Numbered from the stretch's first letter, positions 10,616-64,000 are shown. The stretch: 64,000 nt of DNA from Patescibacteria group bacterium (GCA_041661625.1 JBAZUB010000002.1:28059-92058); one strand, 5' to 3'. Numbers and translations: made by a program. The notes: generated from the letters alone by a model not told the origin.

Positions 10616-10622
10616 TGTTCGT

Positions 10623-10656
10623 AAGGCGTTTCCGAATTCGGGGACGCCTTTATCTA
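10623..10656 (+). terminator. Hairpin terminator after ABC exporter (aaggcgt..ccgaattcgg..acgcctt)
   Basis: Nested inverted repeat followed by T-rich stretch. Confidence 0.45.
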
Positions 10657-10658
10657 TA

Positions 10659-10688
10659 TCGACAAACTTACCCGATTACAGTTATAAT
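10659..10688 (+). promoter_or_regulatory. Candidate promoter for glyA-folD (TCGACA-18-TATAAT)
   Basis: Hexamers read directly 38 nt upstream of glyA GTG. Confidence 0.45.
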
Positions 10689-10725
10689 TATTAAAGACGC
10701 CTTTTGATTTCTAACCACTAACTTT

Positions 10726-12842: not shown

Positions 12843-12874
12843 AATCTTAAGACAAGGTTCAAAGATACTACAAA

Positions 12875-12906
12875 CTGCCCCCTCCTTTGTAAGGAGGGGG
12901 CAGTTT
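12875..12906. terminator. Bidirectional hairpin terminator (ctgccccctcctt tgta aggagggggcag) between folD and convergent gene
   Basis: 12-bp GC-rich stem with short T runs on both sides. Confidence 0.6.
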
Positions 12907-12936
12907 AAAGAATTGTGCTGCTAAGTTGGTTTGGGT

Positions 12937-45900: not shown

Positions 45901-46828
45901 AAGCAGTCAGAATCATCCATTCCGGTCGGATATTATTCTTCTTCAAATTGTGCACCAACTTCAATCGGCGCACCAGCTTGCGTTTGCGGTTTAAGGACGC
46001 GGTACGCATCTCGGTCTCGAGCTCGGAAATCAGCCCATCCATATCAATCACGTCGAGCAGGTGACGGACCGCTTCGGCGCCGATGCTAGCCTCGAAGACA
46101 TGGCCGTACTTGAGCGATAAGTCTTGATAAGTGCTTTCCGAGATTATTTGCAATCGTTTCAGGCTGCGCAGTTCCTTGCGGGCCAATTCAACTAAGGCGT
46201 CCAACTCCTTGATCTGTTCGTCTTTGAGCTTGGCATTGGCGGCCAATTCATCGGCCAGCATCTTCTCGTCGGGTTTGCTGGCATGGCGCTGGCGGGTTTC
46301 GTTGGCCAGGCGATTGAAGTTATTCTCAATCTGTTTTTTCTTCGATTGGCCCTCGCCGTCGATTTGCTTCAGGCTTTCCTGGCGCAGGTCCTCGTCGACC
46401 TTGGTAATAATAAAATTGGCGAAGTAGATAACCTTCTCAAGCTCCTGGGCGGATAGATCAAGCACTAGGCCGATCTTGGATGGCACGCCGCGGAGAAACC
46501 AGATGTGTGAAACCGGCGCGGCCAGATCGATATGACCCATGCGCTCACGGCGGACGATACTGCGGGTCACTTCCACGCCGCATTTGTCGCAAATAATGCC
46601 CTTGTAGCGAATCCGCTTGTATTTGCCGCAGTAACATTCCCAATCCTTAGATGGGCCAAAAATCTCTTCGGCAAACAAGCCGTCTTTTTCCGGTTTCTGA
46701 GTGCGGTAGTTGATGGTTTCCGGTTTGGTTACCTCGCCGTACGACCATTTGTGGATGTCGTCAGGAGAAGCCACCTTTAACCGGATGGCCCGGAAGTCCG
46801 GACTCTTCGATTCGTCTTGGTGGGGCAT
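42974..46828 (-). CDS. rpoC: DNA-directed RNA polymerase subunit beta'
   Basis: 1284 aa; zinc-binding CYCGKYKR...CDKCG, NADFDGD catalytic motif, canonical beta' throughout. Confidence 0.97.
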
Positions 46829-46836
46829 ATAGTATG

Positions 46837-49800
46837 TTACTTCTTGTTCTTGGACTCTCGTTTTTTAGGCTCAGGTTCAGGCGGCGTTTCAACCGGCGCC
46901 TCGATATCGGCCGACGTTTCAATTTTTTCCTGAATCGGCTGACCGTCGGAACCGAGCAGCTCAACGTCCAGCGCTAAACCTTTTAACTCCCGGACCAAGA
47001 CATTGAAAGATTCCGGGATGTTGATTTTATTGATTGGTTCGCCTTTGATAATCGCTTCATAAGCCTTGGAACGGCCGGGGACATCGTCGGACTTGATGGT
47101 CAGCATTTCTTGCAGAGTGTGCGCGGCACCATAGGCCTCGAGCGCCCAGACTTCCATTTCACCGAACCGCTGTCCGCCGAACTGGGCTTTACCACCGAGC
47201 GGCTGCTGGGTGACTAATGAGTATGGACCGATCGAACGCTGGTGAATCTTGTCTTCCACCAAGTGATTCAGTTTGAGCATATAAATGTAGCCGACGGTAA
47301 CTTTTTGATCGAACGGCCGACCGGTTCGCCCGTCGTAGACTGAAACCTTGCCATCTTCGGGCAAACCCGCTTTTTTCAATTCTTCCCGAATTTGAACGTC
47401 GGACATGCCATCGAGTGTCGGGGTGGCGACTTTATAGCCCAGCTGATGGGCGGCAAAACCGATATGCGTTTCCAAAATTTGACCCAGGTTCATACGGGAG
47501 ACGACGCCCAATGGGTTGAGTATAATATCGACCGGGCGGCCATCCTCGAGGAAGGGGAGATCTTCAGTGGCAACGATGCGGGAAATAACACCCTTATTAC
47601 CATGGCGGCCGGCCAGTTTGTCGCCTACCTGGACCTTGCGCAATTGAGCCACCGACACTTGGATGGTCTTAATCACGCCGGCGGGCAGTTTGTCGCCAGT
47701 TTCCTTGGAAAATATCTTAATATCAACGACTTTGCCGTGTTCGCCATGTTCGAGATAAAGCGAGCTGTCTTTGACGTCTTTGGCTTTTTCACCAAAGATG
47801 GCGCGCAATAACTTTTCTTCGGCGGACAGTTCGGTTTCACCTTTGGGAGTTATTTTACCGACTAGAATGTCGCCAGATGAAACCTCGGCGCCGATTCGAA
47901 CCACGCCCTCTTCATCCAGGTCTTTTAGTTTCTCTTCGCTGACATTCGGTATGTCGCGGGTAACTACCTCCGGACCTAATTTAGTATCGCGTACGTCTAC
48001 CGAGTAGTCTTCAATGTGTATGGAACTAAAGACATCGTTCTGAACCAAACGTTCCGACAGCAGAATCGCGTCCTCATAGTTGCCGCCGTCCCAGGGGATG
48101 AAGGCTACCAGCACATTTTGACCTAGTGCTAACTCGCCGTTTTCGGTCGAAGCGCCGTCGGCAATGACATCGCCAGCCTGTAATTTTTGGCCGACATCAA
48201 CCAGTACGTGTTGATTCATGCAGGTGGCCGCGTTGGACCGGACAAAGTTGCCCATCGGATAGACTTGAGTCGTGCCATCATCGGCCAACACCTGGACTTC
48301 CGAGGCCTGGCACTTGATCACGCGGCCGGGCTTGGTGTTCAGCACCACATGACCGGAATCCCGGGCGGCGCGCGCTTCCACGCCGGTGCCGACGATCGGC
48401 GCCTGGGGACGGATGCAGGAAACAGCCTGACGTTGCATATTGGTACCCATCAAGGCGCGGGTAGCGTCATCATTTTCCACAAACGGGATCAGGGAAGTGG
48501 CCACGCTAATGATCTGATTCGGGGCGACGGCCATTAAATTGATTTGTTCGGTGGGGACTATGGCCGGCTCGCCGTGTTTGCGGGCTTCGGCGCGGTCAAA
48601 GGCGAGGTTGTTATATTCGTCGACCGGCGTGGTGGCGGCGGTGGAGATGTATCGCTCTTCTTCAAAAGCGTCCAGATACACCAGCTCATCGGAAACGTGC
48701 GGCCGAATAGCGATCATGGACTGGCCATTGCTGGCGATATGCTCAGCCACCTCTTTGGTAATCAGTTCGCCCGCCTTAGTAATTACCTTACCTTGGGCAT
48801 CGGTAATATTTTCCCGGGCGATACGATTGACGGTTTTGGACGGTTTATTCTCAATTTCGTTGTAGATTTTGCAATACGGTGTTTCGATAAAACCAAAGTC
48901 ATTCACCCGCGCGTAGGTGGTCAAGTGGCCTACCAAGCCGATATTCGGACCTTCGGGAGTGGCGATCGGACAGATACGGCCATAGTGCGTGCGATGCACA
49001 TCGCGGACGTCGAAACCGGCTCGTTCGCGCGATAACCCGCCGGGACCCATGGCGGACAAGCGGCGCTTGTGTTCCAATTCCGCCAGGGGATTGGTCTGAT
49101 CCATGAACTGGGACAGCTGCGAAGACATGAAGAATTCCTTGACCGAACCCATCACCGGACGGGCATTGATCAATTGGCTTGGCGTCAGGGTATTCACGTC
49201 CATCGTACTCATGCGGTCGCGGATAATGCGTTCCATGCGGGACAGTCCGACGCGGAATTTGTTCTGGACCAATTCACCGATGGCGCGGACGCGGCGGTTG
49301 CCCAAGTGGTCGATATCATCGGCTTCCCGCTGGGTATTGTTCAAATCGATGATTTCTTTGATAATTGAAACCAAATCATCAATCCGTAAGATGCGCGTCT
49401 CTTTATTATTGGGGATATCAAAACCGAAGCGCTGGTTGATCTTGTAGCGTCCCACTCGGCCGAAGTCATAGCGGTCAAAAGAGAAGAACATCTTGAAAAT
49501 CAGCTCGCGGGCATTGTCGACCGTAGCTAAATCGCCCGGGCGGATGCGTTTGTAGACTTCCTTTAAGCCTTCGGCTTCCGAACGAGCCGCGTCCTTTTCG
49601 ATCGTCTTCGTAATATACTGGACATCGGGGTTGGCGTCGGCGCCTTCAAACAGTTTCTTGAGCTCCTCGTCGCTCCCGACCCCAAAAGCGCGCAGCAAAC
49701 TAGTGATCGGTACCTTCCGTTTGCGATCGATCTTAACAATTATTACGTTGTTGTAATCGGTCTCTAGTTCAAGCCAGGCGCCGCGGTTGGGGATGATCTT

Positions 49801-50271
49801 GGCGCCGTAGTAACGGCGGCCGCGATAGAGCTCCGAAGTAAAAAACACTCCGGCTGATCGGATCAGCTGGGATACTACGACGCGCTCAATGCCATTGATA
49901 ATGAAGGTGCCGCGGTCAGTCATCAACGGAAAGTCGCCCAAATAGACCTCTTGTTCCTTGATTTCACCGGTTTTCTTGTTGACCAGTCGGCAATTGACCC
50001 GGAGAGCGGCCTCATAGGTCAGATTCTTGGCTTTGGCCGTATTTTCGTCGAATCTGGGCTCATCCAGGTAGTAATTCTCGAAGTATAACTCAAGATTCCG
50101 GCCAATATACTCTTGGACGGGTGAAATCTCTTCAAATAGCTCTTTTAACCCCTCACGAAAAAACCAGTCATACGACTTGCGCTGGATTTCGATCAGATTG
50201 GGTAACGATATTGCTTCGCGCAGGGGCTTAAAGTACTTGCGCTCCTGCCTTTTAGTATGCAATTGAGACAT
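46837..50271 (-). CDS. rpoB: DNA-directed RNA polymerase subunit beta
   Basis: 1144 aa; canonical beta subunit blocks (e.g. [38 protein letters not shown]). Confidence 0.97.
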   Translation of the reverse strand: [1144 protein letters not shown]

Positions 50272-50379
50272 AAAACTCCACCCTCTCCCGTGTCGCCAGC
50301 CAGGAGACGGGGTATGAATCTATAAAATTGGCTCAATTTCGCCTGAAAAACCCTATATTTACGCCTAACATGTAAATTG

Positions 50380-50408
50380 ATGATAACACAAAAAACCAAG
50401 TTGTCAAC
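50380..50408 (-). promoter_or_regulatory. Candidate rpoBC promoter on minus strand (TTGACA-17-TATCAT with upstream TG)
   Basis: Hexamers read on reverse complement ~110 nt upstream of rpoB start. Confidence 0.45.
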
Positions 50409-50532
50409 ATATACGGTTCAGGGTGTCAAAAACGTACTAAAAAAACCTAATATTAGCCAATTAGTTGAAATTTTTGGCTAACGGTAAATAAAATGAACAC
50501 TTTATTGTGCACAGTCAATAGACAAGTTATCC

Positions 50533-50578
50533 ACAGTTATTATTTAGAAAATGAAACCAGGCTCATATGTGAGCCTGG
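50533..50578 (-). terminator. Rho-independent terminator after giant gene A (ccaggctca tatg tgagcctgg + TTTCATTTTCT on minus strand)
   Basis: 9-bp stem, U-tract; 34 nt downstream of gene A stop. Confidence 0.6.
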
Positions 50579-50611
50579 AGACATATTTTCTAGCAGATAT
50601 TGCAGCAAATA

Positions 50612-53600
50612 CTAACGCAATTCGTATTTCATGTAATAGGCCGATACGATCTTCTGCTTGATCAGACGCCCCGAAAGGTTAAGACAGGGCATATATGCGT
50701 AACACGTACCCCGATATTTATCACCACTGGCGCAGATATTAACATATGTATTATCAATACAAACCTGGCTTGGCGTGTCGCTATAGGGGTAATCCGGGTC
50801 TACCAGATAGGCCGCTCCGGTGCAGGATCCATTAAGATAGTAATTGGTGCCATACGCATCAGCCGAAACCTCGGTAGAATTGGGCGGACAAATCAATCCA
50901 CCGGCTGCATATGCCAAACTGCTAGAAATGGCGGAGCCGGTATCGTACCAGAATTTAACGCCGGTTGCCGTGTTGTCTCTGGTGGTGCCGGTGGTATAGA
51001 TATAACGCCCGAGGCAGACATCGGTACCGATTTCGCAGACACTTATCGAAACCGGCTTATCGCGACCTTGAAGTATCAGGTGGTTAGGAATACCGACCTT
51101 GCCGGAAAAAGTCGCTGCCCATCCGGTGCCGTCCTGTTGAGCGTACAGGGCCGAGCCCGACGCATTATTGGCATATATGCCCAACCCATCATTAGCATTG
51201 CCCGTGTTTGATGATCCAGCATTGATAGTTAACTTGGCATTGGGTCCGGTTTGTCCAATGCCGACCTTGCCGGTTCCGGTTATGTTTAGATCGCTTCGAC
51301 CCTGTGTTCCGAGCGACAGTATTTTATTTTCGTAGGAACCCACGTAGGCTTCTCCGGTGCCCGCTATGGAAATTTCCAGCCCGTCCCCGGCCGTTTGTCC
51401 GGTGTTCGTATTTTGCAGCAGCAGTACCGTGGGTGAGGCCGTGTCTTTGTACATATTCAGGAGAGACCTAGGAGTTGTTGTGCCCACGCCAACATTACCG
51501 CCCGTGAGAATAGTGATTCGGTCTTCGTTGCCACTACCATTTGCTAAGCGCAGGTCATTGCCGGCAGTGTACACACTGGCATAACCGGCCGCCGGCTTGA
51601 ACTTCAATAAACTGCCGGTGGTGCTAAACTGTATGTTGCCGGCAACGGTAAGTTTCTCGGTCAGGGTAGCGGTGCCAATGCCTACGTTGGTTCCATTATC
51701 AAATATTTGGGAGTCGCCCAGTGTGGTGCCGGCCGTGAATTTTGGTAAATAGTTGATTGTGCCCGAACCACCAATTCCGCCGCCACCCAGGTCGTCAGTT
51801 TCGCATGTCACCGACCCGTCAGCCGCGATTGCTCTAATCGAACTGCCGGCCGCGCAATCGGAAAAATATTTGGTCGTGCCATCCAGCTTGTATATGCTGC
51901 TCGCTATCGCTAAGCCGCCGCTATTGTTCAAGCGCAGATACTCGACACCGCCCTTGTAGAATCTAATCCCCTCCTTGCCTTCGATGGTCAGCGCTTGATT
52001 TGGCGTAAGATTGCTGGCGACTCCAATTAGACCGATTCGATCAGTTGTCATGCCGCCAATGATGAGCGCGTCAGCATCAGATCGCGCGCTGACTTGGCCC
52101 GAGAAGTACCCCGCATAACCAGCCGCGTTAGTCTGCTCACCGTAGATGGCCGCGTTAGCCGAATTGTTTTTTACCGATAGTTGCGTTGAATCACCAATAT
52201 TATTATGCCCAATTGCCACCTTGTCAGTCGCCTCATTGTTGGGATTGATAGTGTTGGCGCTGGCACCGGCTTCCCAGAGGCTAGACCCTCCAGCTATGGC
52301 CCAAGAGAGATTGCCCGAGCCATCGTTCTTTAAATAGGTACCTACACCACCCTGCGCATTTGGCCAAGAGTAGGTAATGTTTCGTAATTTAATGATATTG
52401 CCCGTGGAGTCGACCTGGAACTGGTGGCTGCTGCCGACCGTGAGAAGGGAAGTGGGGGCGGTATCACCAATGCCAACATTGCCGCCGGTCAAAATAGTGA
52501 TACGGTCTTCGTTGCCATTACCATTAGCTAGGCGCAGATCAGTGCCGGTGGTATATATGCTGGCGAAACCGGCGGTCGGTTTAAATTTCAGTAAACCGCC
52601 GGTTGTACTTAGTTGAATGTTGCCTGCTATGGTAAGCTTTTCAGTCATCGTGGTGGTTCCAATGCCAACATTGCCATTCATCAAGGCGGTTCGCCCCGAG
52701 AAGTAACCGGCGAACCCCGCGGCGTTCAGCTGTTCAGCATAAATTGCCGAATTAACAGAATTATTATAGGTGGCGAAAGCGGTCAGATCACCCTCGGTTG
52801 CTTGACCTACCCGGACCTTGTCATCGATCTCGGCCGGATAAACACTGTTAACGCCATTATGCGTCCAGAGAGTGTTGATCTGCAATCGATGATTCCCGCC
52901 CCCGACATTAATTTCCTGAGTCCAGATGCCGGTGCCGTTAACTAATTCGCTGCCGAGATATTCTGGAGTAGCATCTGCCGCGCTAGTCATGACCATGAAA
53001 GTGTCAGAACCAGCCGCACCGAAATCGTCGAATTCACAGGTTACGGTGCCATCAGCCGCGATGGCTCGGATAGAATTGCCAGCCGCACAGTCCGCAAAAA
53101 ACTTGGTTGTGCCGTTCAGCTTGTACAGTCCACCCGACATAGCCAAGTCGCCGTCGATACCCAGCTCTTGATTTGGGCTGACGGTATTGATACCCATCCG
53201 GCCTCCCATAACAACGGTTTTACCAGAAAAATATCCTGCATACCCATTGGCGTTAGCTTGTTCGAAATATCCTGCGGCATTCAATGAGCCGTTCTTCACG
53301 GATAATTGCGTCGAATCACCAATATTATTGTGCCCAATTGCCACCTTGTCGGTCGTCTCGTTAATCGGATTGATCGTGTTCGCGGTCGCGCCGGCTTCCC
53401 AGAGGCTGGCGCCCGCACCCTGATCGACGCCACAGAAAAGATTGCCATTGGCGTCGACGTCGACCGTGTTATTTCCGGTGCAGCCTGTGAGGCCGGGGAT
53501 TCTGATGGTGCCATCTCCGAGTATGCGCATTCGCTCAGCAAAAGCGCCGGTGTTCGTAGTGAAGAAAATCATGTCAAAGGTGTTGGATCCGAGTTGCCGC

Positions 53601-54349
53601 TCGACCGCAATCCGGCCGTTCGAACCATCCGGCCCCCAGGGGAATCCCGCCGAACCGCCAAAGCGCCAGTCGATACCCATGGCGTTCGAACCGTTGTTAT
53701 CCAAACTATCGATGGTAAACATAGACTTGTAGCCGACCACGCTCGCTCCAACGGCCAGTGGCGCGCTGGGATTGTTTGTGCCAATGCCGACATTCCAGCT
53801 CAAGTTGGTGGGATACAGATTCGCGCCAACCTGGGTCCAAAAACCGCCACCTCCGCCACCCCCGCAACCCAACGTTCCCTCGTTGTCCGTGCTGACACCG
53901 CCGCAACCGGCACCGCCATTGATCAGATTCTGCACGGATAGTTGGCCCACATTCGCTCCAGCCTGAGAGATTTTTACTTTACCTTGCAGTTCAATGTGAT
54001 CACCTATGTCGCCGGGTGAAACATAGAGCGTGTTGGCGCCGAAGTTAATATGCGGTTTGGCCAAGTCGGCGCCATTAAACCAAAAAATACCAGTATTGTC
54101 GTACGGTATGTACAGGCTACCGGATGAAACGCTCAGGAATTCCCCCGCCACGGTCAATGAGCCATTCTTTGTTTGAGGTGAAGACGAGGTATTGATCGGC
54201 GCGGCGACATTGCCCCCCGGCGGTGCACTTTCGGGAGGAGACCAAGCCGCTAGCGCTTGGCCAACCGGTGCCGATAATGCCACGCACAAGAGCACCGGCA
54301 TGACCATTAGGTACACCAGCTTTGAGCCACGGAATAGATTTGATTTCAT
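50612..54349 (-). CDS. giant secreted repeat protein (paralog A), phage tail-fibre-like repetitive modules
   Basis: 1245 aa; signal peptide MKSNLFRGSKLVYLMVMPVLLCVALSAPVGQALA; shared N-terminal module with B and D; Gly/Asn/Thr-rich repeats. Confidence 0.8.
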   Translation of the reverse strand: MKSNLFRGSKLVYLMVMPVLLCVALSAPVGQALAAWSPPESAPPGGNVAAPINTSSSPQTKNGSLTVAGEFLSVSSGSLYIPYDNTGIFWFNGADLAKPHINFGANTLYVSPGDIGDHIELQGKVKISQAGANVGQLSVQNLINGGAGCGGVSTDNEGTLGCGGGGGGGFWTQVGANLYPTNLSWNVGIGTNNPSAPLAVGASVVGYKSMFTIDSLDNNGSNAMGIDWRFGGSAGFPWGPDGSNGRIAVERQLGSNTFDMIFFTTNTGAFAERMRILGDGTIRIPGLTGCTGNNTVDVDANGNLFCGVDQGAGASLWEAGATANTINPINETTDKVAIGHNNIGDSTQLSVKNGSLNAAGYFEQANANGYAGYFSGKTVVMGGRMGINTVSPNQELGIDGDLAMSGGLYKLNGTTKFFADCAAGNSIRAIAADGTVTCEFDDFGAAGSDTFMVMTSAADATPEYLGSELVNGTGIWTQEINVGGGNHRLQINTLWTHNGVNSVYPAEIDDKVRVGQATEGDLTAFATYNNSVNSAIYAEQLNAAGFAGYFSGRTALMNGNVGIGTTTMTEKLTIAGNIQLSTTGGLLKFKPTAGFASIYTTGTDLRLANGNGNEDRITILTGGNVGIGDTAPTSLLTVGSSHQFQVDSTGNIIKLRNITYSWPNAQGGVGTYLKNDGSGNLSWAIAGGSSLWEAGASANTINPNNEATDKVAIGHNNIGDSTQLSVKNNSANAAIYGEQTNAAGYAGYFSGQVSARSDADALIIGGMTTDRIGLIGVASNLTPNQALTIEGKEGIRFYKGGVEYLRLNNSGGLAIASSIYKLDGTTKYFSDCAAGSSIRAIAADGSVTCETDDLGGGGIGGSGTINYLPKFTAGTTLGDSQIFDNGTNVGIGTATLTEKLTVAGNIQFSTTGSLLKFKPAAGYASVYTAGNDLRLANGSGNEDRITILTGGNVGVGTTTPRSLLNMYKDTASPTVLLLQNTNTGQTAGDGLEISIAGTGEAYVGSYENKILSLGTQGRSDLNITGTGKVGIGQTGPNAKLTINAGSSNTGNANDGLGIYANNASGSALYAQQDGTGWAATFSGKVGIPNHLILQGRDKPVSISVCEIGTDVCLGRYIYTTGTTRDNTATGVKFWYDTGSAISSSLAYAAGGLICPPNSTEVSADAYGTNYYLNGSCTGAAYLVDPDYPYSDTPSQVCIDNTYVNICASGDKYRGTCYAYMPCLNLSGRLIKQKIVSAYYMKYELR

Positions 54350-54378
54350 ATGGGAGTATTTTATATTAACCGGCTGAT

Positions 54379-54387
54379 ATTATACCA
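54379..54387 (-). promoter_or_regulatory. extended -10 (TGgTATAAT) candidate promoter for gene A
   Basis: Read on reverse complement 30 nt upstream of gene A start. Confidence 0.4.
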
Positions 54388-54511
54388 TAAATAATCCCGC
54401 CGACACAATGTGGTGCATGCAGCCATAACAAACCAGACCCATAAATGGGTCTGGTTATTCTATTTCGGTTTTAGTTTATTTCTGATTGTTGGCCTGGATG
54501 AATCAGGCTGG

Positions 54512-57500
54512 TTATTTGACCTTTTGCTCCAGTCGATCGAGGCGGGCGGTGAGTTCATCGATCGTATGGCTCTGCTTATCGATAATCTGACTCTGTTCCT
54601 GGATCGCCTTGACCATTGGGGCCATCAAGTCGTTGTAACGAAGATTTCTGGTCTTTTCGGCATCGTTATCTATCAATAGCATGTTGTATTCATCGGGCGA
54701 CACGAGCTTCTCAATATCCTGGGCGATGAAGCCGAAGTCAGTCTTGCCGTTGCCGTTCTTCATATTGTACTGCACCGGGCGCAAGCTGTTTATGAAACCC
54801 AGCCCGAGCGAACTATCCTTGATGTTCTCTTTCAACCTGACATCCGAAGGGGAGGAGAATGCAACCTGGATAGTGGCCGATGAAATACTGGCGTTACCAA
54901 TCCGGACTGAATTAGATGCGCTCGTGGTCGCCCCATATCCGATATTGATGGTGTTCTCCAGTGCTCCCGAGGTTGGCCCAGATCCGCGTCCAATGCCCAC
55001 ATTGAAATTTCCGGAGGTAACATTCTCGAGCGCCAGGTAGCCAGCGGACACATTGTATCCGCCGGATACATTGTTGAGCTGACTTCGAGTTCCGATCGCG
55101 ACGTTACCGGCGGCCGTCGTAAGGGCTGTTAGAGCTGATCTACCCACAGCTACGTTGGATGAACTAGTGGTAGATTTCAGTGCTTGAAAGCCAACCGCCG
55201 TGTTTTCGAATGTGTTGGTAATACTAGACAGGGCCTGATAACCGATGGCGGTTTGCTGCGTAGCAGTCGTAATGCTAGCGCCAGCGCCGTTGCCAAATAT
55301 AGTGTTACCATCAACATTGCCCGAACCGCGCCCAGCCCGCAGACCATTGATTGTGATATCACCGTCGAAATATCCGGCCCACTCACCTGCGCCGGTGTTC
55401 CCGCCTACCGAGCCATAGACGCCCGCGCAGGTGCCGGTGCAATTCGACCCCGCCACTAATTCGCCATAGACACCGCTGCCATTTACTCCGGAACCACTGT
55501 TGCCTTTGTAGCCGGATACTGCGTTGTAGTTCGAACTGGAATTGTTATAGGCTGAAACGGTGTTATTTACTGTGTAACCACTCGCGCCGGTTGCGGAAAC
55601 GGTTAACAACGACGCGGGACTAGTGTTGCCGATACCGACCTGACCACCGTTCAACATATACATCACATTGGTCGAAGAGTTATTCCGGATATTCCATCCA
55701 CCGCTGCCGAAATTGGTATACATGACATTATCAGTCCAGCGCGGCCACATCCAGGCATTCCATGCGCCGGCGCTGTCTTTGGCTTCCATAATTTGTCCAT
55801 TGCCTTGCCCGATCGTGCCGTTAACATGAAGAGTCCGCTCGGGAGTTATAGTATTAATGCCAACATTGCCGCCGGTTAAAATGGTAATACGGTCTTCGTT
55901 GCCACTGCCGTTAGCCAGTCGCAGGTCGGTGCCGGCGGTATATATACTGGCAAAACCGGCGGTTGGTTTTAGTTTCAGCTGGCCTCCCGCCGTGCTTAGT
56001 TGAACATTGCCCGCGATCGTAAGTTTTTCGGTAGGTGTTGTCATGCCGATGCCGACGCTACCCGCCCCAGTGATGCTTAGATCGTTTCGGCCCTGGGTGC
56101 CGAGAGATAAAGATCTATTTTCATATGAACCAACATAGGCGTCGCCCAACGCTGCGACCGAAACTTCCAGACCATCACCGTTGGTATTGCCAGTGGTCGC
56201 GTTTTGCACTAATAGAACCGAGCTCCCTCCAATTGGGTTATATAAATCCAGCCGGGAGGCAGGTGTGCTTGTGCCGATACCGACATTACCGGACGTATCA
56301 ACAAACAAGCCTTCATTACCGCCATCATTCGAAACCCAATAGCCGCTCATTCTTAAGTTGGCTCTGGCAATATGATCGCCCAGGTTATCTCCCACGGCTC
56401 CGCCATCGTCAGTCTCGCAAGTCACAGTACCGTCAGCAGCGATAGTTTTGATCGACAGATTTGCACCGCTGCAGGTATCGGCAAAAAACTTTGTTGCGCC
56501 GTCCAGTTTATAGATGCCGCCGGACATTGCCAGGTCGCCACTTAGTCCAAGTTCCTGGTTCGGTGTGGCGGTGCCAACGCCGAGGCGGCCGCCCATTACC
56601 ACGGTTTTGCCTGATAGGTAAGCGGCATATCCCGCGGCATTGGCTTGTTCAAAGTAGGCCGCGGAGTTAGCTGAATTATTTTTTACCGACAACTGGGTTA
56701 AATCGCCGATGTTGTTATGCCCAATCGCCACCTTATCCGTCGCCTCGTTTATCGGATTGATCGTGTTCGCGCTCGCGCCTACCTCCCACAAATTGGAACC
56801 GCCGGCGGGCAACCAGGTTAAATTGCCCGAGCCGTTATTGGTGAGCACAGTACCGGCTCCGCCTTGGCCAACAGGCCAAGAGTAGGTTACGTTTCTAATT
56901 CGGATGGGATTGCCATTAGAATCAACTTGAAACAGGTCGCCGCTACCGACCGTCAAAAGGGAGGCGGGGGTGGTATCGCTAATGCCAACATTGCCACCGG
57001 TTAAAATGGTAATACGGTCTTCGTTGCCATTGCCGTTAGCCAGCCGCAGGTCGGAACCAGTGGTATACAAACTGGCAAAACCAGCTGACGGTTTTAATTT
57101 CAACAAACTACCAACCGTACTGAACTGAATGTTACCAGCAATCGTTAGTTTTTCAGTCAGGGTAGTGGTCCCAATGCCGACATCGCCGTCCATCATCGCG
57201 GTTTTACCGGAAAAATAGGCGGCATAACCGGAGGCGTAGGCCTGCTCAAAGTAGGCCGCTGAGTTAACTGAACTATTTTTTACTGACAACTGCGTTGAAT
57301 CGCCGATAACATTGTGTCCAATGGCCACCTTATCGCTGGCTTCATTTACTGGATTGATCGTATTCGCGGTCACACCGACTTCCCAGAGACCACTGCCACC
57401 CGAGGACGCGATTTGGATCTGTTCATTGCCGCCGGCATTTAGTTTTGTCAGAGTAATATTCGAACCGGCCGATAATTTATCCTGGAGGTAACTAGCGATC

Positions 57501-58756
57501 GAATCCGTGGCCGATGCCTTAACCAATTCATCGGTACCGCCCAGGCCACCCGTTAGGTCAGTGGCGCAGATTAACTGCCCGTTGTTGTCCGCTTTTACCG
57601 TGTTGGCGCCAAGACAAGCGCCGCCAGCCAAGCTAGCTATTCGGGCGCTGCCCACGACGTCGAGTTGATAACTTGGATCGGTCGTTCCAATGCCGACGAA
57701 ACCGCCGAAGATAGAGAAGTCATAATTGTTCGACAGTATTAAGTCAAAATGTCGCGGGCTGTTTTTTGATCCCAAGCCAAGCTTGGCTGCGGTTAGGCCA
57801 TTGTTTAGCCACCAAATATATGGATTTTCGGCTATCGTCGGGTTTTCTTCATTAAGCATCAGCGTGTTTTGGTCGAAAGTCAGCGTGCCCCAGTTTGTGT
57901 CCCAAGGTTTGTTTTCAGAGACTCTGAAACCACCAGAAAAGTAGCCGGCATAACCGAATTGGCTATTCTGTTCTGCGTAGATGGTCGAATTGATGGAATT
58001 ATTAATAACCGACAACTGGGTGGAATCACCGATATTATTGTGCCCAATGGCCACCTTATCGGTCGTCTCGTTTATCGGGTTGATCGTGTTGGCACTCGCG
58101 CCAGCTTCCCACAGGCTAGAGCCACCACCCGAAGCGGCGATCTGAATCTGCTCGTTACCGCCCGGATTTATGGTGGTTAAAGTTACGTTCGCGCCGGCCG
58201 ACAATTTATTAATCAGATAATCCGCCGTCGTATCGAGGTTGGATATTTTTACCAATTTATCATCGCCGCCTGGTCCGACGCCCACCTCATCTGTCGTACA
58301 TACCAGTTTGCCAGCCAGGTCGGTTTTTAGAGTATTTACACCCGTGCATCCAGCCACATTCGGGAATGTTAGATCGCCCTGTAGTTCAATATGATTGTTA
58401 ATCAAGTCACCCGGAGAAATATATAGCGTATTGGTTAGAAAATTTATATGCGGTTGTTCCAAATGGGGCAGGTCGGTCTCGTCGGACCAAAAAATACCCT
58501 TTTCACTACCCGGAATGTACAAATCCCCAGTTGCTAATTTCAGAAAATTGCCGGCCACGGTCAGATCGCCCTGCTTGGTCTGGGGTGTGGCTGATGTATT
58601 GATCGGCGCGGCTACGTTGCCTCCCGGCGGGATGGTTGTCGGGACGGTCCAGGACGCGAACGCCTGCCCGGCAAGTGTAAATAGTGCCACGCATAATAAC
58701 ACCGGCATAGCCACTGGGTACATCAGCTTGAAGCCTCTAAATAGGTTGGGTTTCAT
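54512..58756 (-). CDS. giant secreted repeat protein (paralog B) with C-terminal intramolecular-chaperone (peptidase S74-like) domain of phage tailspike/tail-fibre proteins
   Basis: 1414 aa; signal peptide; C-terminus SSPSDVRLKENIKDS...GFIAQDIEKLVSPDEYN...coiled coil ELTARLDRLEQKVK. Confidence 0.8.
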   Translation of the reverse strand: MKPNLFRGFKLMYPVAMPVLLCVALFTLAGQAFASWTVPTTIPPGGNVAAPINTSATPQTKQGDLTVAGNFLKLATGDLYIPGSEKGIFWSDETDLPHLEQPHINFLTNTLYISPGDLINNHIELQGDLTFPNVAGCTGVNTLKTDLAGKLVCTTDEVGVGPGGDDKLVKISNLDTTADYLINKLSAGANVTLTTINPGGNEQIQIAASGGGSSLWEAGASANTINPINETTDKVAIGHNNIGDSTQLSVINNSINSTIYAEQNSQFGYAGYFSGGFRVSENKPWDTNWGTLTFDQNTLMLNEENPTIAENPYIWWLNNGLTAAKLGLGSKNSPRHFDLILSNNYDFSIFGGFVGIGTTDPSYQLDVVGSARIASLAGGACLGANTVKADNNGQLICATDLTGGLGGTDELVKASATDSIASYLQDKLSAGSNITLTKLNAGGNEQIQIASSGGSGLWEVGVTANTINPVNEASDKVAIGHNVIGDSTQLSVKNSSVNSAAYFEQAYASGYAAYFSGKTAMMDGDVGIGTTTLTEKLTIAGNIQFSTVGSLLKLKPSAGFASLYTTGSDLRLANGNGNEDRITILTGGNVGISDTTPASLLTVGSGDLFQVDSNGNPIRIRNVTYSWPVGQGGAGTVLTNNGSGNLTWLPAGGSNLWEVGASANTINPINEATDKVAIGHNNIGDLTQLSVKNNSANSAAYFEQANAAGYAAYLSGKTVVMGGRLGVGTATPNQELGLSGDLAMSGGIYKLDGATKFFADTCSGANLSIKTIAADGTVTCETDDGGAVGDNLGDHIARANLRMSGYWVSNDGGNEGLFVDTSGNVGIGTSTPASRLDLYNPIGGSSVLLVQNATTGNTNGDGLEVSVAALGDAYVGSYENRSLSLGTQGRNDLSITGAGSVGIGMTTPTEKLTIAGNVQLSTAGGQLKLKPTAGFASIYTAGTDLRLANGSGNEDRITILTGGNVGINTITPERTLHVNGTIGQGNGQIMEAKDSAGAWNAWMWPRWTDNVMYTNFGSGGWNIRNNSSTNVMYMLNGGQVGIGNTSPASLLTVSATGASGYTVNNTVSAYNNSSSNYNAVSGYKGNSGSGVNGSGVYGELVAGSNCTGTCAGVYGSVGGNTGAGEWAGYFDGDITINGLRAGRGSGNVDGNTIFGNGAGASITTATQQTAIGYQALSSITNTFENTAVGFQALKSTTSSSNVAVGRSALTALTTAAGNVAIGTRSQLNNVSGGYNVSAGYLALENVTSGNFNVGIGRGSGPTSGALENTINIGYGATTSASNSVRIGNASISSATIQVAFSSPSDVRLKENIKDSSLGLGFINSLRPVQYNMKNGNGKTDFGFIAQDIEKLVSPDEYNMLLIDNDAEKTRNLRYNDLMAPMVKAIQEQSQIIDKQSHTIDELTARLDRLEQKVK

Positions 58757-58785
58757 ATGTAAAATATTTTATATAAACCAACTTT

Positions 58786-58814
58786 ATTATACTAAGATTG
58801 ATATAATGAAGCAA
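58786..58814 (-). promoter_or_regulatory. Candidate promoter for gene B (TTGCTT-17-TATAAT on minus strand)
   Basis: Hexamers read on reverse complement 30 nt upstream of gene B start. Confidence 0.45.
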
Positions 58815-58890
58815 GGCGCAAAGAAACAGCGACCACAATCCGATCGCCGTTTCTTTCGTTACTATTCTGTTTGCTATCTAGGTCGATCCA

Positions 58891-61800
58891 CTATGGATAC
58901 GGGAAAGCACCCATGTCGGTGCCGGCACCAAAGGCCGGGTTGCCCGTATTAATGCACGGTGATCCAGCCAACAGGTGATAGTCATTAGCGGCTGAGTTGA
59001 TAAACCTTGGATCGGCATTAATATTGTTTGACCCGAAGCCCGACCAGCCGCCTTGAATGTCGGAGTATTGAACCTTGGCACATAGCGGCCAGGGATTAGA
59101 CATCTGCCCGATGCTGGGACTAATTGGCGCGGTATTGGCCCAAACGATACTGCTGTCAAATACCGGATTTTGAGCCAAGCAGGCGCCGAGGTTAGTGGAA
59201 TTATTAACGAATACGCCGCCGCCTTCACCCGAGGTCGTGTTATACGCTACGGTGTTATTCCTGACATTTATCAGATTGCCCGGAGCATCGTACAATACAG
59301 TCAACAACATGCCTCCACCATAACCGTAAGTCGGTAAAATTGTGTTTCTGAACACTGCATTCTTTTCAATCAATGCGCCTCCCCCGCCGGCGAAAGCTAT
59401 TCCAGCTCCCCCAGATTCGGTCGGCCCGATAGTGTTATTTGAAATAGTATTATTCGAGATATTGGCATATCCGCCCCAGTGGTTGATACCGCCGCCGGAA
59501 TATTTTACAGCATTGTTGCTAATAGTATTGTTGGTAATTGTGGTCGATGTACTAGCGTTGCCACCCGACGAGATACCGCCACCATAGCTACCGCTGGTAC
59601 CGGAGGTATTCTGCGTGATGGTGTTGCCGGTAATAGTGAAAGTACCGCCGTTATATGTCGCCGAAACACCAGCGCCGGCACCGTCAGTAACGTTGCTGGT
59701 GACAGTATTGCCGGAAAAAGTTACGGTTCCGCCTATGTCCGCACCACCACCACCACCGCGATTACTTACGCCAGTTCCAAGGGCGGTATTTCCAGTCAGC
59801 GTATTATTGGAAACGGTTCCACTGCCGCGGAAGTAAATACCCCCGCCAAACTTACCGTCATTACTGGTGATTGAGTTACTACTGATATTAGCCGTGCCAG
59901 CCTGACAGTTAACGCCCCCACCGTTTGATCCGCTGCCGCCACCGTGGTGGTTGATGTTGTTATTTTGAATCGTGGCCGAAACGGTACCCGCCAGACACAT
60001 AATACCGGGGCCGCCAGCAGTACAGTTCATAGTGCCAGACATGCCATCTCTAATAGTGTTCCAGGTGATAGTCGCCGATCCGCCCCACACATAGACGCCG
60101 CGGCAATTGCCATAAATTAAGTTATCGTTAATCGTGGCATTGCTGCCTGTTTCAACTTTTACACCCGCGGTCACGCAATTGTATATTTCATTATTTCGGA
60201 CCGTGGCGGTAGCGTTGCCATTGACGGTCACACAGTATGGTTCGACCGGATCGCCCCAGGGGTTATTGAACCCCACGATATAGAAACCCTCCAGAATCGA
60301 ACCGGTGCCGCCGTTGAAAACAACATGCGGAATTTCATTATTCTGTGGAATCATGTCCTGACTTTTTAGAGTAATTGATTTGCCCTGGAAGTCGATTATA
60401 CCCTCATTCCAGAAATACCAGCCACCAGTAGAGTCAGTCACAAGTACATTACCAGCGACCGTGTCAGTGTCGTTGATGGCGGCGGTAATGGTGGCATAGT
60501 TTTCCACTTCGGTCATATTGGCGGCGCTGATGTAGCGTCTGACCCGGCGCGGACAGGCGCCACAGTCGGCAGCACAGCTCGAACACGTTTCTGGCGCTAT
60601 GCACTGTCCATTACCGCAACAGCTGCCGCAATCTCCCGGACAGGTCGAACAGGTTTCACCATTGTTGCACACGGTGTCACCACAGAAGCACGCGCCACAA
60701 TCTCCCGGACAAGAAGTACAATTCTCGCCAAAATTACAGCTACCATCCCCACAGCAGTTGCCGCAATCAGCCGAGCAATTCGAACAATTTTCCGGTGCCA
60801 CGCAGGCGCCGTTGCCGCAACAAGCACCACAATCGGCTGGACAGGTTGAACAGGTTTCACCGTTATTACATTGTGTGTCGGGACAATTGGGGACATCGGC
60901 AATAGTAATGGTAATCGATTCCGTATCGGTGGCGCTGGCCGTATCGGTAGCGGTGAAGACAATATTGGGATAACTGCCCGATTGGGTATAGCTTGGAGTC
61001 CAAGTAAAGGTAGCCTCAAACTTTCCCAGTCCGGCGTTATAGGAAGTGTTGCTTAGGTTTGAACCAGATGGTTTATTAGCTACGCTGATGGTCACCGTGT
61101 CACCCGGTGAGTCTGGGTCGGCCGCACGCACCACAAATGACATAGCGACTCCTTCAGAGCCGTTTTTATTGCCGATCGGATCCAGTACGGGAGGTTGGTT
61201 GGTGTTGGCAATAGTGATAGTAATTGATTCCGTATCGGTGGCGCTGGCCGTATCGGTAGCGGTGAAGACAATATTGGGATAACTGCCCGATTGGGTATAG
61301 CTTGGAGTCCATGTGAAGGTAGCCTCAAATTTACCGGTGCCAGCGTTGTAGGTCGTGTTGCCCAAGCTGGAGCCAGATGGCAGATTAGCGGCGGTTATTG
61401 TAACACTATCGCCGGTAGCTTGATCTGGGTCGCTCGCGCTGATCGTGAAAGACATGGCCGTGCCCTCGGCGCCGTTCTTGTTTCCGATCGGATCGAGCAC
61501 GGGGGGTTGGTTCACCGGAGCGGCACCGAACTTCTTCAATGCTTTAATGCCATTATTGGTGTTTATTCTGACCCTAGTGGCGTTAGGATCGCCCGGCGGT
61601 ACCAGCACTATACTGTATGTTGAGCCATTTTGTTTGACGCGTAATTCGGAAGTTGTCGGACCGGCGGGCACGCAGGCAAAATGAAGTGTTTGGATTCCGT
61701 CATATACTCGGAGGCCGCAGTCGGTTTCGCCGGGAAGTGGGGTGGTTCCCCAAGCCAAGTCAAAAGCTGCCCCATTGTTGGTAAACACGGAGCTACCCAG

Positions 61801-62826
61801 ACCCGTCCAAGTGGTTCCGTTCGTTGAAGTCGCGAAAGTGTTGGTGACATTATTTCCAGCCGCAATCCACTTACCATCGCCCCAGGCCACAGATGTACCA
61901 CCACCACCGGGGGGACTAAAAATATCAAGACCACCCAACCCAACCCAATTGATGCCATCTATGGATGTGGCAATAACGTTGATATCCGTGCCGACATTAT
62001 ATGTATGCGCAACCGCAACCCACCTGCTGCCATTCCAGGCCAAGTCCATACCACCATAACCATCAGCATTAGTAAATATTGAATTGCCCAAACCTGTCCA
62101 ATTAATACCGTCATAAGAGTACGCGATGGTGTTGGCTCCATATCCTACCGCTACCCACATTGTTTCATTCCAGGCAATACCAACGCCGGTATTAGAAAAT
62201 ATTCCTTTACCCAAGCCAGTCCATGAGATGCCGTCATATGAATAGGCGATAGTATTGTTGCCTCCTCCCACCGCAACCCACATTGTTCCGTTCCAAGCAA
62301 CGTCTAAACCGCTCTCGCCTGGATTAGAACCGAATATATTTACACCACCACGGCCAACCCAATTAATACCATCGGCTGATGTAGCAAAATTATTAGGAGC
62401 ATTTCCTACTGCTACCCATTTGTTATCGCCCCAAGCCACGCCATATCCACCGCCTTGTTGGGTCCATTGATTATAATCAAAAATCGAATCACCTAGTCCC
62501 GTCCAGTCGACACCATTCGTAGAATGGGCAACGGTGTTTTCACCCACCCCTACTGCGACCCACATGCTTCCGTTCCAGGCTACACCTTGACCCCATTGGG
62601 AAAATATTGCTTTGCCTTGGCTGGTCCAATTAGTGCCATCCAGGGAAGTGGCCATGGTGGCGTCGTCGCCACGTCCGACTGCTATCCATCGGCCAGCGGC
62701 CACCACTGGTTGGTTCATCATTCCAATTCCTGTCAGCGAGAAAACAAATACCGCGCAGAGGCGGATCAGCCACCATTGGCGACTCTGATGTGCGAGTATA
62801 GTTGTTAGCTCGGACTTCGGGTTCAT
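58891..62826 (-). CDS. giant mosaic surface protein (paralog C): WxAVG beta-propeller-like repeats, tandem Ig/cadherin-like domains, Cys-rich repeats, parallel beta-helix repeats
   Basis: 1311 aa; N-terminal hydrophobic anchor/signal; ~9 repeats of W(V/I)AVG..DG.NWTG; two near-identical PPVLDPIGNKNG..DPD domains; NGETCSTCPxDCG repeats; NNTISNN/GGG beta-helix-like repeats. Confidence 0.8.
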   Translation of the reverse strand: MNPKSELTTILAHQSRQWWLIRLCAVFVFSLTGIGMMNQPVVAAGRWIAVGRGDDATMATSLDGTNWTSQGKAIFSQWGQGVAWNGSMWVAVGVGENTVAHSTNGVDWTGLGDSIFDYNQWTQQGGGYGVAWGDNKWVAVGNAPNNFATSADGINWVGRGGVNIFGSNPGESGLDVAWNGTMWVAVGGGNNTIAYSYDGISWTGLGKGIFSNTGVGIAWNETMWVAVGYGANTIAYSYDGINWTGLGNSIFTNADGYGGMDLAWNGSRWVAVAHTYNVGTDINVIATSIDGINWVGLGGLDIFSPPGGGGTSVAWGDGKWIAAGNNVTNTFATSTNGTTWTGLGSSVFTNNGAAFDLAWGTTPLPGETDCGLRVYDGIQTLHFACVPAGPTTSELRVKQNGSTYSIVLVPPGDPNATRVRINTNNGIKALKKFGAAPVNQPPVLDPIGNKNGAEGTAMSFTISASDPDQATGDSVTITAANLPSGSSLGNTTYNAGTGKFEATFTWTPSYTQSGSYPNIVFTATDTASATDTESITITIANTNQPPVLDPIGNKNGSEGVAMSFVVRAADPDSPGDTVTISVANKPSGSNLSNTSYNAGLGKFEATFTWTPSYTQSGSYPNIVFTATDTASATDTESITITIADVPNCPDTQCNNGETCSTCPADCGACCGNGACVAPENCSNCSADCGNCCGDGSCNFGENCTSCPGDCGACFCGDTVCNNGETCSTCPGDCGSCCGNGQCIAPETCSSCAADCGACPRRVRRYISAANMTEVENYATITAAINDTDTVAGNVLVTDSTGGWYFWNEGIIDFQGKSITLKSQDMIPQNNEIPHVVFNGGTGSILEGFYIVGFNNPWGDPVEPYCVTVNGNATATVRNNEIYNCVTAGVKVETGSNATINDNLIYGNCRGVYVWGGSATITWNTIRDGMSGTMNCTAGGPGIMCLAGTVSATIQNNNINHHGGGSGSNGGGVNCQAGTANISSNSITSNDGKFGGGIYFRGSGTVSNNTLTGNTALGTGVSNRGGGGGADIGGTVTFSGNTVTSNVTDGAGAGVSATYNGGTFTITGNTITQNTSGTSGSYGGGISSGGNASTSTTITNNTISNNAVKYSGGGINHWGGYANISNNTISNNTIGPTESGGAGIAFAGGGGALIEKNAVFRNTILPTYGYGGGMLLTVLYDAPGNLINVRNNTVAYNTTSGEGGGVFVNNSTNLGACLAQNPVFDSSIVWANTAPISPSIGQMSNPWPLCAKVQYSDIQGGWSGFGSNNINADPRFINSAANDYHLLAGSPCINTGNPAFGAGTDMGAFPYP
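60899..61520. repeat. tandem direct repeat, 2 x ~310 bp (first ~105 bp of each copy nearly identical) inside gene C
   Basis: gcaatagt(a/g)at(g/a)gtaat(c/t)gattccgtatcggtggcgctggccgtatcggtagcggtgaagacaatattgggataactgcccgattgggtatagcttggagtcca present at 60899 and 61209. Confidence 0.8.
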
Positions 62827-62842
62827 GGCCGACCTTTTGTTT

Positions 62843-63979
62843 TTAGTTCAATACCAGCCACATCTGTCCGACCGCGGGACTGGCGGGATCGCCTTGGGCC
62901 GCGGTGCGAACCTGAATAACTAAGCCGTCAGTGGCCTTTATCGTACCACCCTGAACTTCGAGTTTAGTGCCGGCTGCCGGGTTCTCCACCCCAATACCCA
63001 CCGCGCCATTCATGATGACAGTTTTGCCGGAAAAGTATCCGGCAAAACCCTGGCCGCCGGTGATCTCGGCGTATAGAGTCTTGTCATTGGCAGCCGTGGC
63101 CGCATTGGTCACTGACAAACGAGTATTGTCACTAATGTCCAGTCGGCCAATTGCCACCTTATCAGTAGTTTCGTTAGTTGGCGCAATGGTGTCTGCAGTC
63201 GAACCAGCCTTCCAAATGCCACCGCCAGCCGCAACAACAGCCCAGGAAAGATTGCCGCTGCCGTCGTTCTTTAAGTATGCGTCATTATCCGCCCCTAGGT
63301 TATTATTCGGCCAATTGTAAGTGACGCCCTTGATCCGGATGATATTACCCGTGGCGTCGACCATGAATTTGTCGCCATTGCCGACGGTGAGAGGCGATAG
63401 AGGGGTGATATCGCCAATGCCAACATTCGCGGTTGGGTTAGTCGGGTAAAGATCGTTCACGTCCTGGGTCCAGAAGCCACCACCAGCCGCGCCGCCGCAG
63501 GTTATTGTGCCATCGGCATCGGTGCTAAGACCGCCGCAACTGACCATATTGGGATTCTGGATACTTAGCGTGGCTAGATTAGTCGGACTGGCCGCGGTGA
63601 TCTTTACGGCGCCTTGCAGCTCAATATGATCGCCCGTTTCGCCAGGGGAAAGATATAGTGAGTTAGCTCCAAAGTTTATGTGGGGCTTAGCCGTGTCTGA
63701 CACGTTGGACCAAAAAACACCCCGGTCCGCCGTGGAAATAAAGAGATCGCCAGTAGCTACCCGGAGATAATTACCAGCTATAGTCAGGTCGCCATTTTTG
63801 GTTTGAGGGGTGGCCGAAGTATTGATTGGCGCAGCCACATTGCCGCCCGGCGGAGCAGTGTCAGGAGCGGTCCAGGATGCCAGCGCCCGGCCGGCCAGAG
63901 TTGAAAATGCCAAGCATAAAAGCACTGGCATAACCGTAAGGTACATCAGCTTTGAGCCTCGAAATAGATTTGATTTCAT
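62843..63979 (-). CDS. secreted protein (paralog D) sharing N-terminal module of A and B, short form (378 aa)
   Basis: MKSNLFRGSKLMYLTVMPVLLCLAFSTLAGRALA signal peptide and first ~120 aa ~75% identical to A; 16-nt gap to gene C suggests co-transcription. Confidence 0.7.
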   Translation of the reverse strand: MKSNLFRGSKLMYLTVMPVLLCLAFSTLAGRALASWTAPDTAPPGGNVAAPINTSATPQTKNGDLTIAGNYLRVATGDLFISTADRGVFWSNVSDTAKPHINFGANSLYLSPGETGDHIELQGAVKITAASPTNLATLSIQNPNMVSCGGLSTDADGTITCGGAAGGGFWTQDVNDLYPTNPTANVGIGDITPLSPLTVGNGDKFMVDATGNIIRIKGVTYNWPNNNLGADNDAYLKNDGSGNLSWAVVAAGGGIWKAGSTADTIAPTNETTDKVAIGRLDISDNTRLSVTNAATAANDKTLYAEITGGQGFAGYFSGKTVIMNGAVGIGVENPAAGTKLEVQGGTIKATDGLVIQVRTAAQGDPASPAVGQMWLVLN

Positions 63980-64000
63980 ATGGGATTATTTTATGTTAGC

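Follow-up and report, generated by a model that had tools for sequence, protein, structure and literature searches.

Bdellovibrio bacteriovorus displays on its surface a family of prey-recognition fibers, the "mosaic adhesive trimers" (MAT) described by Caulton et al. in 2024, which have trimeric β-helix shafts with swapped tips (PMC10769870). MAT proteins fall into S74 and non-S74 subfamilies; the shafts of paralogs are about 75% identical and their tips are exchanged, and one member, Bd3182, has a binding cleft inside its β-helix region (PMC10769870). How ultrasmall epibiotic Patescibacteria recognize and attach to their hosts is poorly understood. In cultivated Saccharibacteria, type IV pili and several unnamed adhesins have been implicated in host attachment (PMC12206443, PMC10633639). 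We found no direct description of tail-fiber or MAT-like fibers in Patescibacteria in the literature searched. Here we analyze two adjacent genes, A and B, and the repeated module (M) that they share, in a 64,000-nucleotide stretch of DNA (the window; JBAZUB010000002.1:28059-92058 of GCA_041661625.1) from a Patescibacteria group bacterium. The repeats mark a modular protein architecture under purifying selection, not a present-day switch or diversity generator.

Several other described systems combine modular surface proteins with repeated sequence. In the mosaic adhesins gp37 and gp38 of T-even phages, short conserved motifs flank the swapped segments. Trimeric autotransporter adhesins (TAAs) of the YadA/Hia type are modular head-neck-stalk fibers. 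The antigenic-variation systems pilE/pilS of Neisseria, mgpB/MgPar of Mycoplasma genitalium and vlsE of Borrelia pair one expression site with promoterless partial cassettes, and they are characterized by long DNA tracts of high identity and by abundant variants in the population.

Results

Copies of module M in genes A and B

Gene A (50612-54349, minus strand) and gene B (54512-58756, minus strand) are open reading frames (ORFs) whose translations, of 1245 and 1414 aa, are modular fiber proteins predicted to be secreted. The initial annotation had reported across them a dispersed, near-identical DNA repeat of about 120 bp in at least five copies, and had proposed that it allows recombination. 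The repeat itself is real and lies where it was reported, with its coding sequence on the minus strand. Chance cannot account for it: pairwise BLASTN among the copies gives E values of 1e-22 to 1e-46, and A plus B (8.1 kb) contain 13 exact repeats of at least 17 nt, against 0 in shuffled sequence. The number of copies was overestimated. A profile scan finds exactly four, two in each gene, and none at further positions in B.

Copy A1 occupies 52466-52672 (A aa 560-628; 143.6 bits with a hidden Markov model [HMM]) and copy A2 occupies 51482-51688 (A aa 888-956; 142.4 bits). In gene B, copy B1 is found at 56978-57184 (B aa 525-593; 143.5 bits) and copy B2 at 55853-56059 (B aa 900-968), all four being on the minus strand. 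With the letters used below for the other modules, A1 and B1 stand in the same context, L-M-F, A2 stands in K-M-Q, and B2 follows module Q (Q-M). The repeat peptide reads LK(F/L)KP.AG(F/Y)AS.YT.G.DLRLANG(N/S)GNEDRITILTGGNVG, with KP.AG.AS.YT.G.DLR.ANG.GNEDRIT.L as its conserved core, and the peptide quoted in the initial annotation has four matches and no more, two in A (aa 587 and 915) and two in B (aa 552 and 927). When built from the four copies, a profile gives 141.6-143.6 bits on the copies themselves and below 9 bits on every other stretch of A, B and the neighboring gene D, with no match in gene C, so that no fifth copy was found. The length also needs revision. An M unit comprises the 64 residues that separate one G(N/D/S)VGIG motif from the next; with the closing motif included it is 69 residues long (207 nt, 69 codons), and the 120 nt originally described are only its most conserved core.

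Divergence of the copies

At the DNA level the copies are strongly diverged rather than near-identical. They share 70-78% of nucleotides when the full 207 nt are compared and 74-88% in the 120-nt core, and polymorphism affects 86 of 210 sites. Exact runs reach 33 nt at most, within gene B (55872-55904, identical to 56997-57029, in copies B2 and B1); this is the only run above 21 nt shared between copies, and the longest run shared between A and B is 21 nt. The encoded peptides are 83-86% identical. By the method of Nei and Gojobori (NG86), nonsynonymous divergence (dN) among M pairs is 0.08-0.15, and synonymous divergence (dS) is 0.99-2.6 or not computable through saturation. Identical residues are encoded by identical codons in 43-64% of cases, where the codon usage of the two genes predicts about 35%, and for the pair A2-B1 this codon identity does not differ significantly from that of codons chosen independently (z = 1.4). 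No gene-conversion tract was detectable in a GENECONV-like permutation of polymorphic sites (p ≥ 0.15 in each of the six pairwise comparisons). Neither ORF is interrupted, and dN/dS is far lower than 1. Pairs of a second shared module, L, behave in the same way, with dN of 0.10-0.23 and dS from 1.5 to saturated.

High protein identity combined with low DNA identity, dS from about 1 to saturation and the lack of a detectable conversion tract identify the four M copies as ancient duplicates. Their likeness has been kept by purifying selection on the protein and not by recent duplication or gene conversion. A copy of M outside this genome, in the fiber protein P0074 (described below), keeps the core motif at 59-67% overall identity and saturated dS; this favors selection on the peptide over recent copying.

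Aligned with the European Nucleotide Archive (ENA) assembly of the same locus (L001), the window shows a single-nucleotide polymorphism (SNP) in 19,489 bases, with no indel and no rearrangement. The SNP is C/A at 53868 and changes Gly161 of A to Val immediately ahead of seven consecutive glycines (CGGGGGGG). G161V is thus what distinguishes the ENA/JGI/Logan allele (P0001) from the NCBI allele of A (MFA6198267.1), whose glycine is the one present in the window. No variant or chimeric A/B allele was found among 5.8 billion clustered proteins searched with A and B, where, apart from A and B themselves, the closest relatives reach 40-51% identity over about one third of the length. The window as a whole contains no inverted repeats of at least 50 nt, and a whole-window repeat search returned no near-identical pair outside the fiber modules. 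That search likewise gave no invertible element and no template/variable repeat pair of a diversity-generating retroelement, although reverse transcriptase was not searched for. Tandem Repeats Finder detected no tandem arrays in 50000-64000. There are no silent cassettes, as A, B and D are each complete. Ongoing homologous recombination or phase variation at the M repeats is not supported.

Modular architecture of the fibers

We built an HMM for each module and then annotated the family with them. Gene A reads N-G-c-L-Y-E-L-M-F-L-Y-K-M-Q-Z, where Z is a Cys-rich, non-S74 C-terminal tip (aa 1083-1245), and gene B reads N-c-E-L-c-E-L-M-F-L-Y-R-Q-M-H-S. The two share a collinear block, E-L-M-F-L-Y, which in A spans 51791-53011 (minus strand; aa 447-853) and is paralogous to B aa 404-784 (56405-57547), with 72.9% DNA identity over a 635-nt core. 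Beyond this block the order is permuted, K-M-Q in A versus R-Q-M in B. Overall, A aa 1-1150 aligns with B aa 1-1144 at 38.6% identity, and the C-termini differ (Cys-rich Z versus H-S74). The initial annotation was also right that a second module (SLWEAG...QLSVKN) is common to both genes. This is module L ('SLWEAG...YAGYFSG'), with two clear copies (53210-53410 and 52088-52285, minus strand) and one diverged copy (52685-52837) in A, three copies in B (57920-58120, 57194-57394 and 56597-56797) and one in D (63014-63220).

Every relative that we annotated has a different module string. D is simply N-F-L, P0003 is N-F-E-L-c-E-L-F-(weak partial M)-c-K-L, P0011 is N-E-L-c-E-L-Y-R-H, P0004 is N-c-E-L-F-L-Q-H and P0005 is N-G-c-L-H-S. 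The last of these, from another organism, joins an A-like front (matching A aa 1-408, 51%) to a B-like S74 back (matching B aa 958-1412, 48%), and the junction between the two falls at a GNVGIG motif. The DNA that encodes such a junction, GGCAATGTTGGCATTGG, recurs at four module boundaries, which would offer microhomology for rare, in-frame illegitimate exchange. The differing module order in A, B and their relatives, together with the architecture of P0005, indicates that fiber segments have been shuffled over evolutionary time. The view that A and B are paralogous, adhesin-like fiber proteins of a mosaic family with shared modules is supported.

Protein signatures and structure

Gene A has no Pfam or NCBIfam match, and NCBIfam gave none on B or D either. 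In B, Pfam recognizes Peptidase_S74 (PF13884; E = 9.9e-12, aa 1304-1351), a predicted intramolecular chaperone and autoprotease domain encoded at 54704-54847 (minus strand); the S-D-x-R-x-K motif of the family is present as SDVRLK from aa 1304. Among PHROG families, A matches tail fiber over aa 558-653, and B matches tail spike and tail fiber. NCBI names B 'MAG: tail fiber domain-containing protein [Patescibacteria group bacterium]', MAG denoting a metagenome-assembled genome, and records A as a hypothetical protein from the same MAG (MFA6198267.1).

A single-sequence search of the PDB with B matches only Bd2133 (8OND; E = 0.008). We then used a profile of the generic repeat, made from 27 full-length GNVGIG-to-GNVGIG units of A, B and their homologs. 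It matches 8OND with E = 3.7e-16 over four stretches (repeat 2-74 against chain 138-213), followed by 8OJN (5e-8), 8OL4 (1e-5), 8OML (1e-5) and 8ON4 (7e-4). These five Bdellovibrio MAT fiber structures are its only significant PDB matches. An AlphaFold2 monomer model of M (mean predicted local distance difference test score, pLDDT, 80.3) is all-β with six strands.

Relatives and distribution

When 1.84 billion representative proteins were searched exhaustively by HMM, the M profile had 3827 matches at E ≤ 1e-3 and 334 at E ≤ 1e-10; with matches in the thousands, the generic unit is evidently very common. It also occurs in IMG/VR viral contigs. Among the matches listed from metagenome and viral contig scans there are generic repeats only, at no more than 45% identity where most of the module aligned. 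Only four proteins carry the specific M subtype, taken as a single domain above 60 bits: A and B, together with P0074 (99.7 bits) and P0119 (63.6 bits).

P0074 is a 972-aa fiber protein without a signal peptide, encoded at 10001-12919 of an unrelated 19,348-bp contig with 31% GC (L036; Logan SRR24750923). The K unit that stands before copy A2 also stands before the M copy of P0074, forming a K-M pair. The gene belongs to a cluster of 15 tightly packed, co-directional genes with no recorded Pfam family, and scans of ten of them found nothing in PHROG and nothing above threshold in Pfam. The layout of its genes suggests the tail or baseplate module of an undescribed phage. Another protein, P0015 (1299 aa), may share the same contig, its longest recorded contig also being 19,348 bp.

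The N-terminal domain of A, B and D follows the pattern AW.PP...PPGGN.AAP.N.S...Q.K.G.L.(I/V).G, and no Pfam or NCBIfam family covers it. Roughly the first 30 residues are found again at 34 loci in GTDB (L062-L095), nearly all of them in Patescibacteria MAGs, including Paceibacterota, Nealsonbacteria, Kaiserbacteria, Saccharibacteria and others; a few are labeled 'uncultured Gammaproteobacteria' in TPA assemblies. GTDB genomes with this domain often have two to five tandem fiber genes, each with a different module string. The domain may be a phylum-specific anchoring or export motif. At the DNA level, A, B and D share their 5' ends (54144-54368, 58551-58775 and 63774-63998), which cover the leader, the signal peptide and the N-terminal domain.

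Genomic setting

The fiber genes lie beside two RNA polymerase subunit genes, rpoB (46837-50271) and rpoC (42974-46828), all on the minus strand. Upstream of B on the same strand are gene C (58891-62826), whose 1311-aa product has He_PIG and β-helix regions and is unrelated to A and B, and gene D (62843-63979), a 378-aa short paralog with the same signal peptide and N-terminal domain as A and B and no M module. A, B and D are all complete ORFs with an ATG and a signal peptide, the Sec-type N-terminal signal peptides having been recognized by eye. A hairpin with a perfect 11-bp stem (54431-54456, minus strand) follows the stop codon of B, and a TGgTATAAT element (minus strand), read by eye and not scored by scan, places a -10 hexamer at 54379-54384, 30 nt upstream of the ATG of A. 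The combination of hairpin and -10-like element suggests that A and B are separate transcription units and that A is transcribed on its own. Upstream of rpoB there is a strong sigma-70-like site with TG and 11 of 12 matches (50407-50380, minus strand).

On the 268-kb ENA contig the locus is the same, in the order LytR, peptidase S8, Mur ligase, D, C, B, A, rpoB, rpoC. A relative with an RpoB 87.7% identical has the same Mur ligase-to-rpoB locus, but two different fiber genes replace D-C-B-A. The interval between the Mur ligase gene and rpoB (window 50272-63979; syntenic loci L001 and L002) can be described as a variable 'fiber island', occupied by D-C-B-A here and by P0011, P0003 and a 202-aa ORF in that relative.

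Gene C has repeats of its own. Two Ig-like repeats of about 103 residues each, 309 nt apart, are approximately 80-84% identical over about 300 nt and include a perfectly identical 86-nt run (60917-61002 and 61226-61311, minus strand). This pair looks to be a much better substrate for homologous recombination, or for a change in repeat number, than anything in A or B. Between the Ig-like repeats and the β-helix region, at about aa 640-760 (window 59900-60600), C also carries Cys-rich repeats of the CxxC type (…CNNGETCSTCPADCGACCGNGAC…).

Discussion

Module M as a probable old shaft module

We think it quite probable that M is an old shaft module of paralogous MAT-like fibers, kept by selection, with no programmed variation at present. 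A, B and D would then be tandem paralogs on a chromosome of the candidate phyla radiation (CPR, Patescibacteria), lying between a Mur ligase gene and rpoB-rpoC and encoding Sec-secreted, long modular fibers of the phage-tail-fiber or Bdellovibrio MAT kind. Each fiber would consist of a lineage-conserved N-terminal domain, a shaft of modules of about 30-100 residues, many of which begin with a G-N-V-G-I-G-T-x-x-P-x-x-K-L motif, and a variable tip: a putative self-cleaving S74 chaperone in B and a Cys-rich domain in A. By homology to Bd2133, M would form one β-helix sub-domain of a trimeric shaft, used twice per protein in A and B. Modules would have been gained, lost and permuted over evolutionary time by rare in-frame exchanges, most likely at the short conserved junctions that encode GNVGIG. 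The M copies in their present state are poor substrates for RecA-type homologous recombination, and nothing indicates programmed or high-frequency variation. From analogy with the known fibers, these proteins are likely to be surface structures that contact other cells, i.e., the hosts of the epibiont.

Some observations weigh against this interpretation. Within the 40-codon core, dS is lower for B1-B2 (0.38) and A1-B2 (0.60), and this low dS and the 33-nt run shared by B1 and B2 may reflect a short, old conversion within the core, although the signal is not significant. The population sample consists of two near-clonal assemblies, and consensus assemblies would hide rare recombinants. How strongly divergence blocks recombination is, moreover, set by mismatch repair. 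A Foldseek search of the M monomer model against the PDB gave no match at E ≤ 0.001 (the top, non-significant hits were T4 gp34), and the fold is thus predicted from sequence-profile homology; a missing match is expected for a single chain of a trimeric fiber. Trimerization, surface display and adhesion are likewise predicted only from homology.

Alternative explanations

M might be kept for a function of its own, such as partner docking, a ligand or glycan groove, or a modification site, and might have moved horizontally between cellular and phage fibers. It is the most conserved module in the comparison of A with B (83-86% identity versus 38.6% overall), and its subtype is very rare among the 1.84 billion representatives searched. 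The same core and preceding K unit recur in P0074, on a 31%-GC, phage-like co-directional cluster, and the binding cleft of Bd3182 lies in a β-helix region (PMC10769870). Against these points, the ligand or partner may be purely hypothetical, the GNVGIG-to-GNVGIG layout is common to thousands of ordinary shaft repeats, and the neighbors of P0074 have no PHROG or Pfam match, leaving the viral nature of that cluster unproven. We consider such a function improbable as the explanation for the repeats, but it is compatible with M being an old, selected shaft module and does not exclude it.

There is also a broader idea. CPR bacteria might widely carry chromosomal tandem arrays of MAT-like fibers as host-recognition organelles, held by a phylum-specific N-terminal anchor, with host range changing through module and tip swaps at GNVGIG junctions, including swaps with phage tail fibers (the K-M cassette of P0074); M would then be a docking or binding element and not a spacer. 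We offer this tentatively and regard it as possible rather than probable.

A further reading, which builds on the initial annotation, takes the repeats to be active: intra- and intergenic homologous recombination or gene conversion would continually reshuffle the fibers and generate adhesin diversity or phase variation. Several features fit. The copies share frame and register, with spacings of 984, 1125, 3387 and 4512 nt that are all multiples of 3, so any exchange would be in-frame. B1 and B2 share their 33-nt exact run, module order differs between A and B, and P0005 is a natural combination of an A front with a B back. The DNA does not bear the proposal out, however: the copies are only 70-78% identical, their dS is about 1 or more, and they lack significant conversion tracts. 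In Escherichia coli, RecA recombination has a minimal processing segment of approximately 23-27 nt and falls log-linearly with divergence, and the exact matches between A and B, at no more than 21 nt, are below this segment. The two assemblies are collinear, with 1 SNP in 19.5 kb, and neither they nor the protein databases searched showed chimeric alleles or structural variants. None of A, B and D is a silent cassette, since all three are complete and encode signal peptides, and inverted or tandem repeats are missing. Active recombination at the M repeats is therefore an unlikely account of this locus. The two outcomes that the initial annotation itself named as refuting its proposal, copies too diverged in DNA to recombine and a lack of structural variation in population data, are what we observe, the second of them in two near-clonal assemblies.

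A mis-assembly or collapse of paralogous reads, conceivable because the source is a metagenome-assembled genome, was rejected as having a negligible chance of being right, since independent contigs from ENA (k141, 268 kb) and NCBI/JGI (311 kb) agree to within one SNP in 19,489 nt, no exact match between copies exceeds 33 nt, much shorter than the k-mers of assemblers, so that the copies cannot be collapsed or cross-joined, and both ORFs are intact with dN/dS well below 1.

Comparison with known systems

The locus resembles antigenic-variation loci such as pilE/pilS, mgpB/MgPar and vlsE in having dispersed repeats common to surface-protein genes. It differs from them in that the genes here are complete, the DNA identity of the repeats is 70-78%, and no variants were seen in two assemblies. 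Like TAAs, A and B are long, repetitive mosaic fibers with a domain order shuffled among paralogs, but neither matches a TAA anchor or head domain in Pfam; a distant relative, P0014, does have PF05658.

A and B can also be compared with phage long tail fibers and tailspikes with Peptidase_S74, of the K1F endosialidase type. Both are modular and have an S74 C-terminus, and the generic repeat occurs in viral contigs of IMG/VR. As in phage mosaic adhesins, short conserved junction motifs flank exchangeable segments. Unlike phage fibers, A and B lie on a bacterial chromosome beside rpoB and have Sec signal peptides, and the fold match to T4 gp34 is not significant. No phage structural genes were noted among the called neighbors of A and B, the rest of the window not having been annotated.

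A close parallel is with the MAT proteins of B. bacteriovorus (Bd2133 [8OND], Bd3182 and Bd1334; PMC10769870). There are differences: Patescibacteria are a different phylum with a different cell envelope, the N-terminal domain is Patescibacteria-wide, the genes form a tandem array beside rpoBC, the module repertoire is another one, with the M subtype confined to A, B, P0074 and P0119, and A and B are known here from sequence alone. The likenesses reach from the repeat to the organism. The shaft repeats, delimited by GNVGIG...KLxV, are homologous (E = 3.7e-16); there are several paralogs per genome, with a shared shaft and exchanged tips; an S74-chaperone subfamily (B) stands beside non-S74 tips (A); and the organism lives on or from other bacteria. 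It is plausible, by this analogy, that tandem MAT-like fibers with a phylum-typical N-terminal domain are host-recognition proteins in Patescibacteria. The tandem fiber set described here, with S74 and non-S74 tips in a conserved but fast-changing locus next to rpoB, and homologous to the prey-recognition fibers of Bdellovibrio, thus provides concrete candidates for host recognition.

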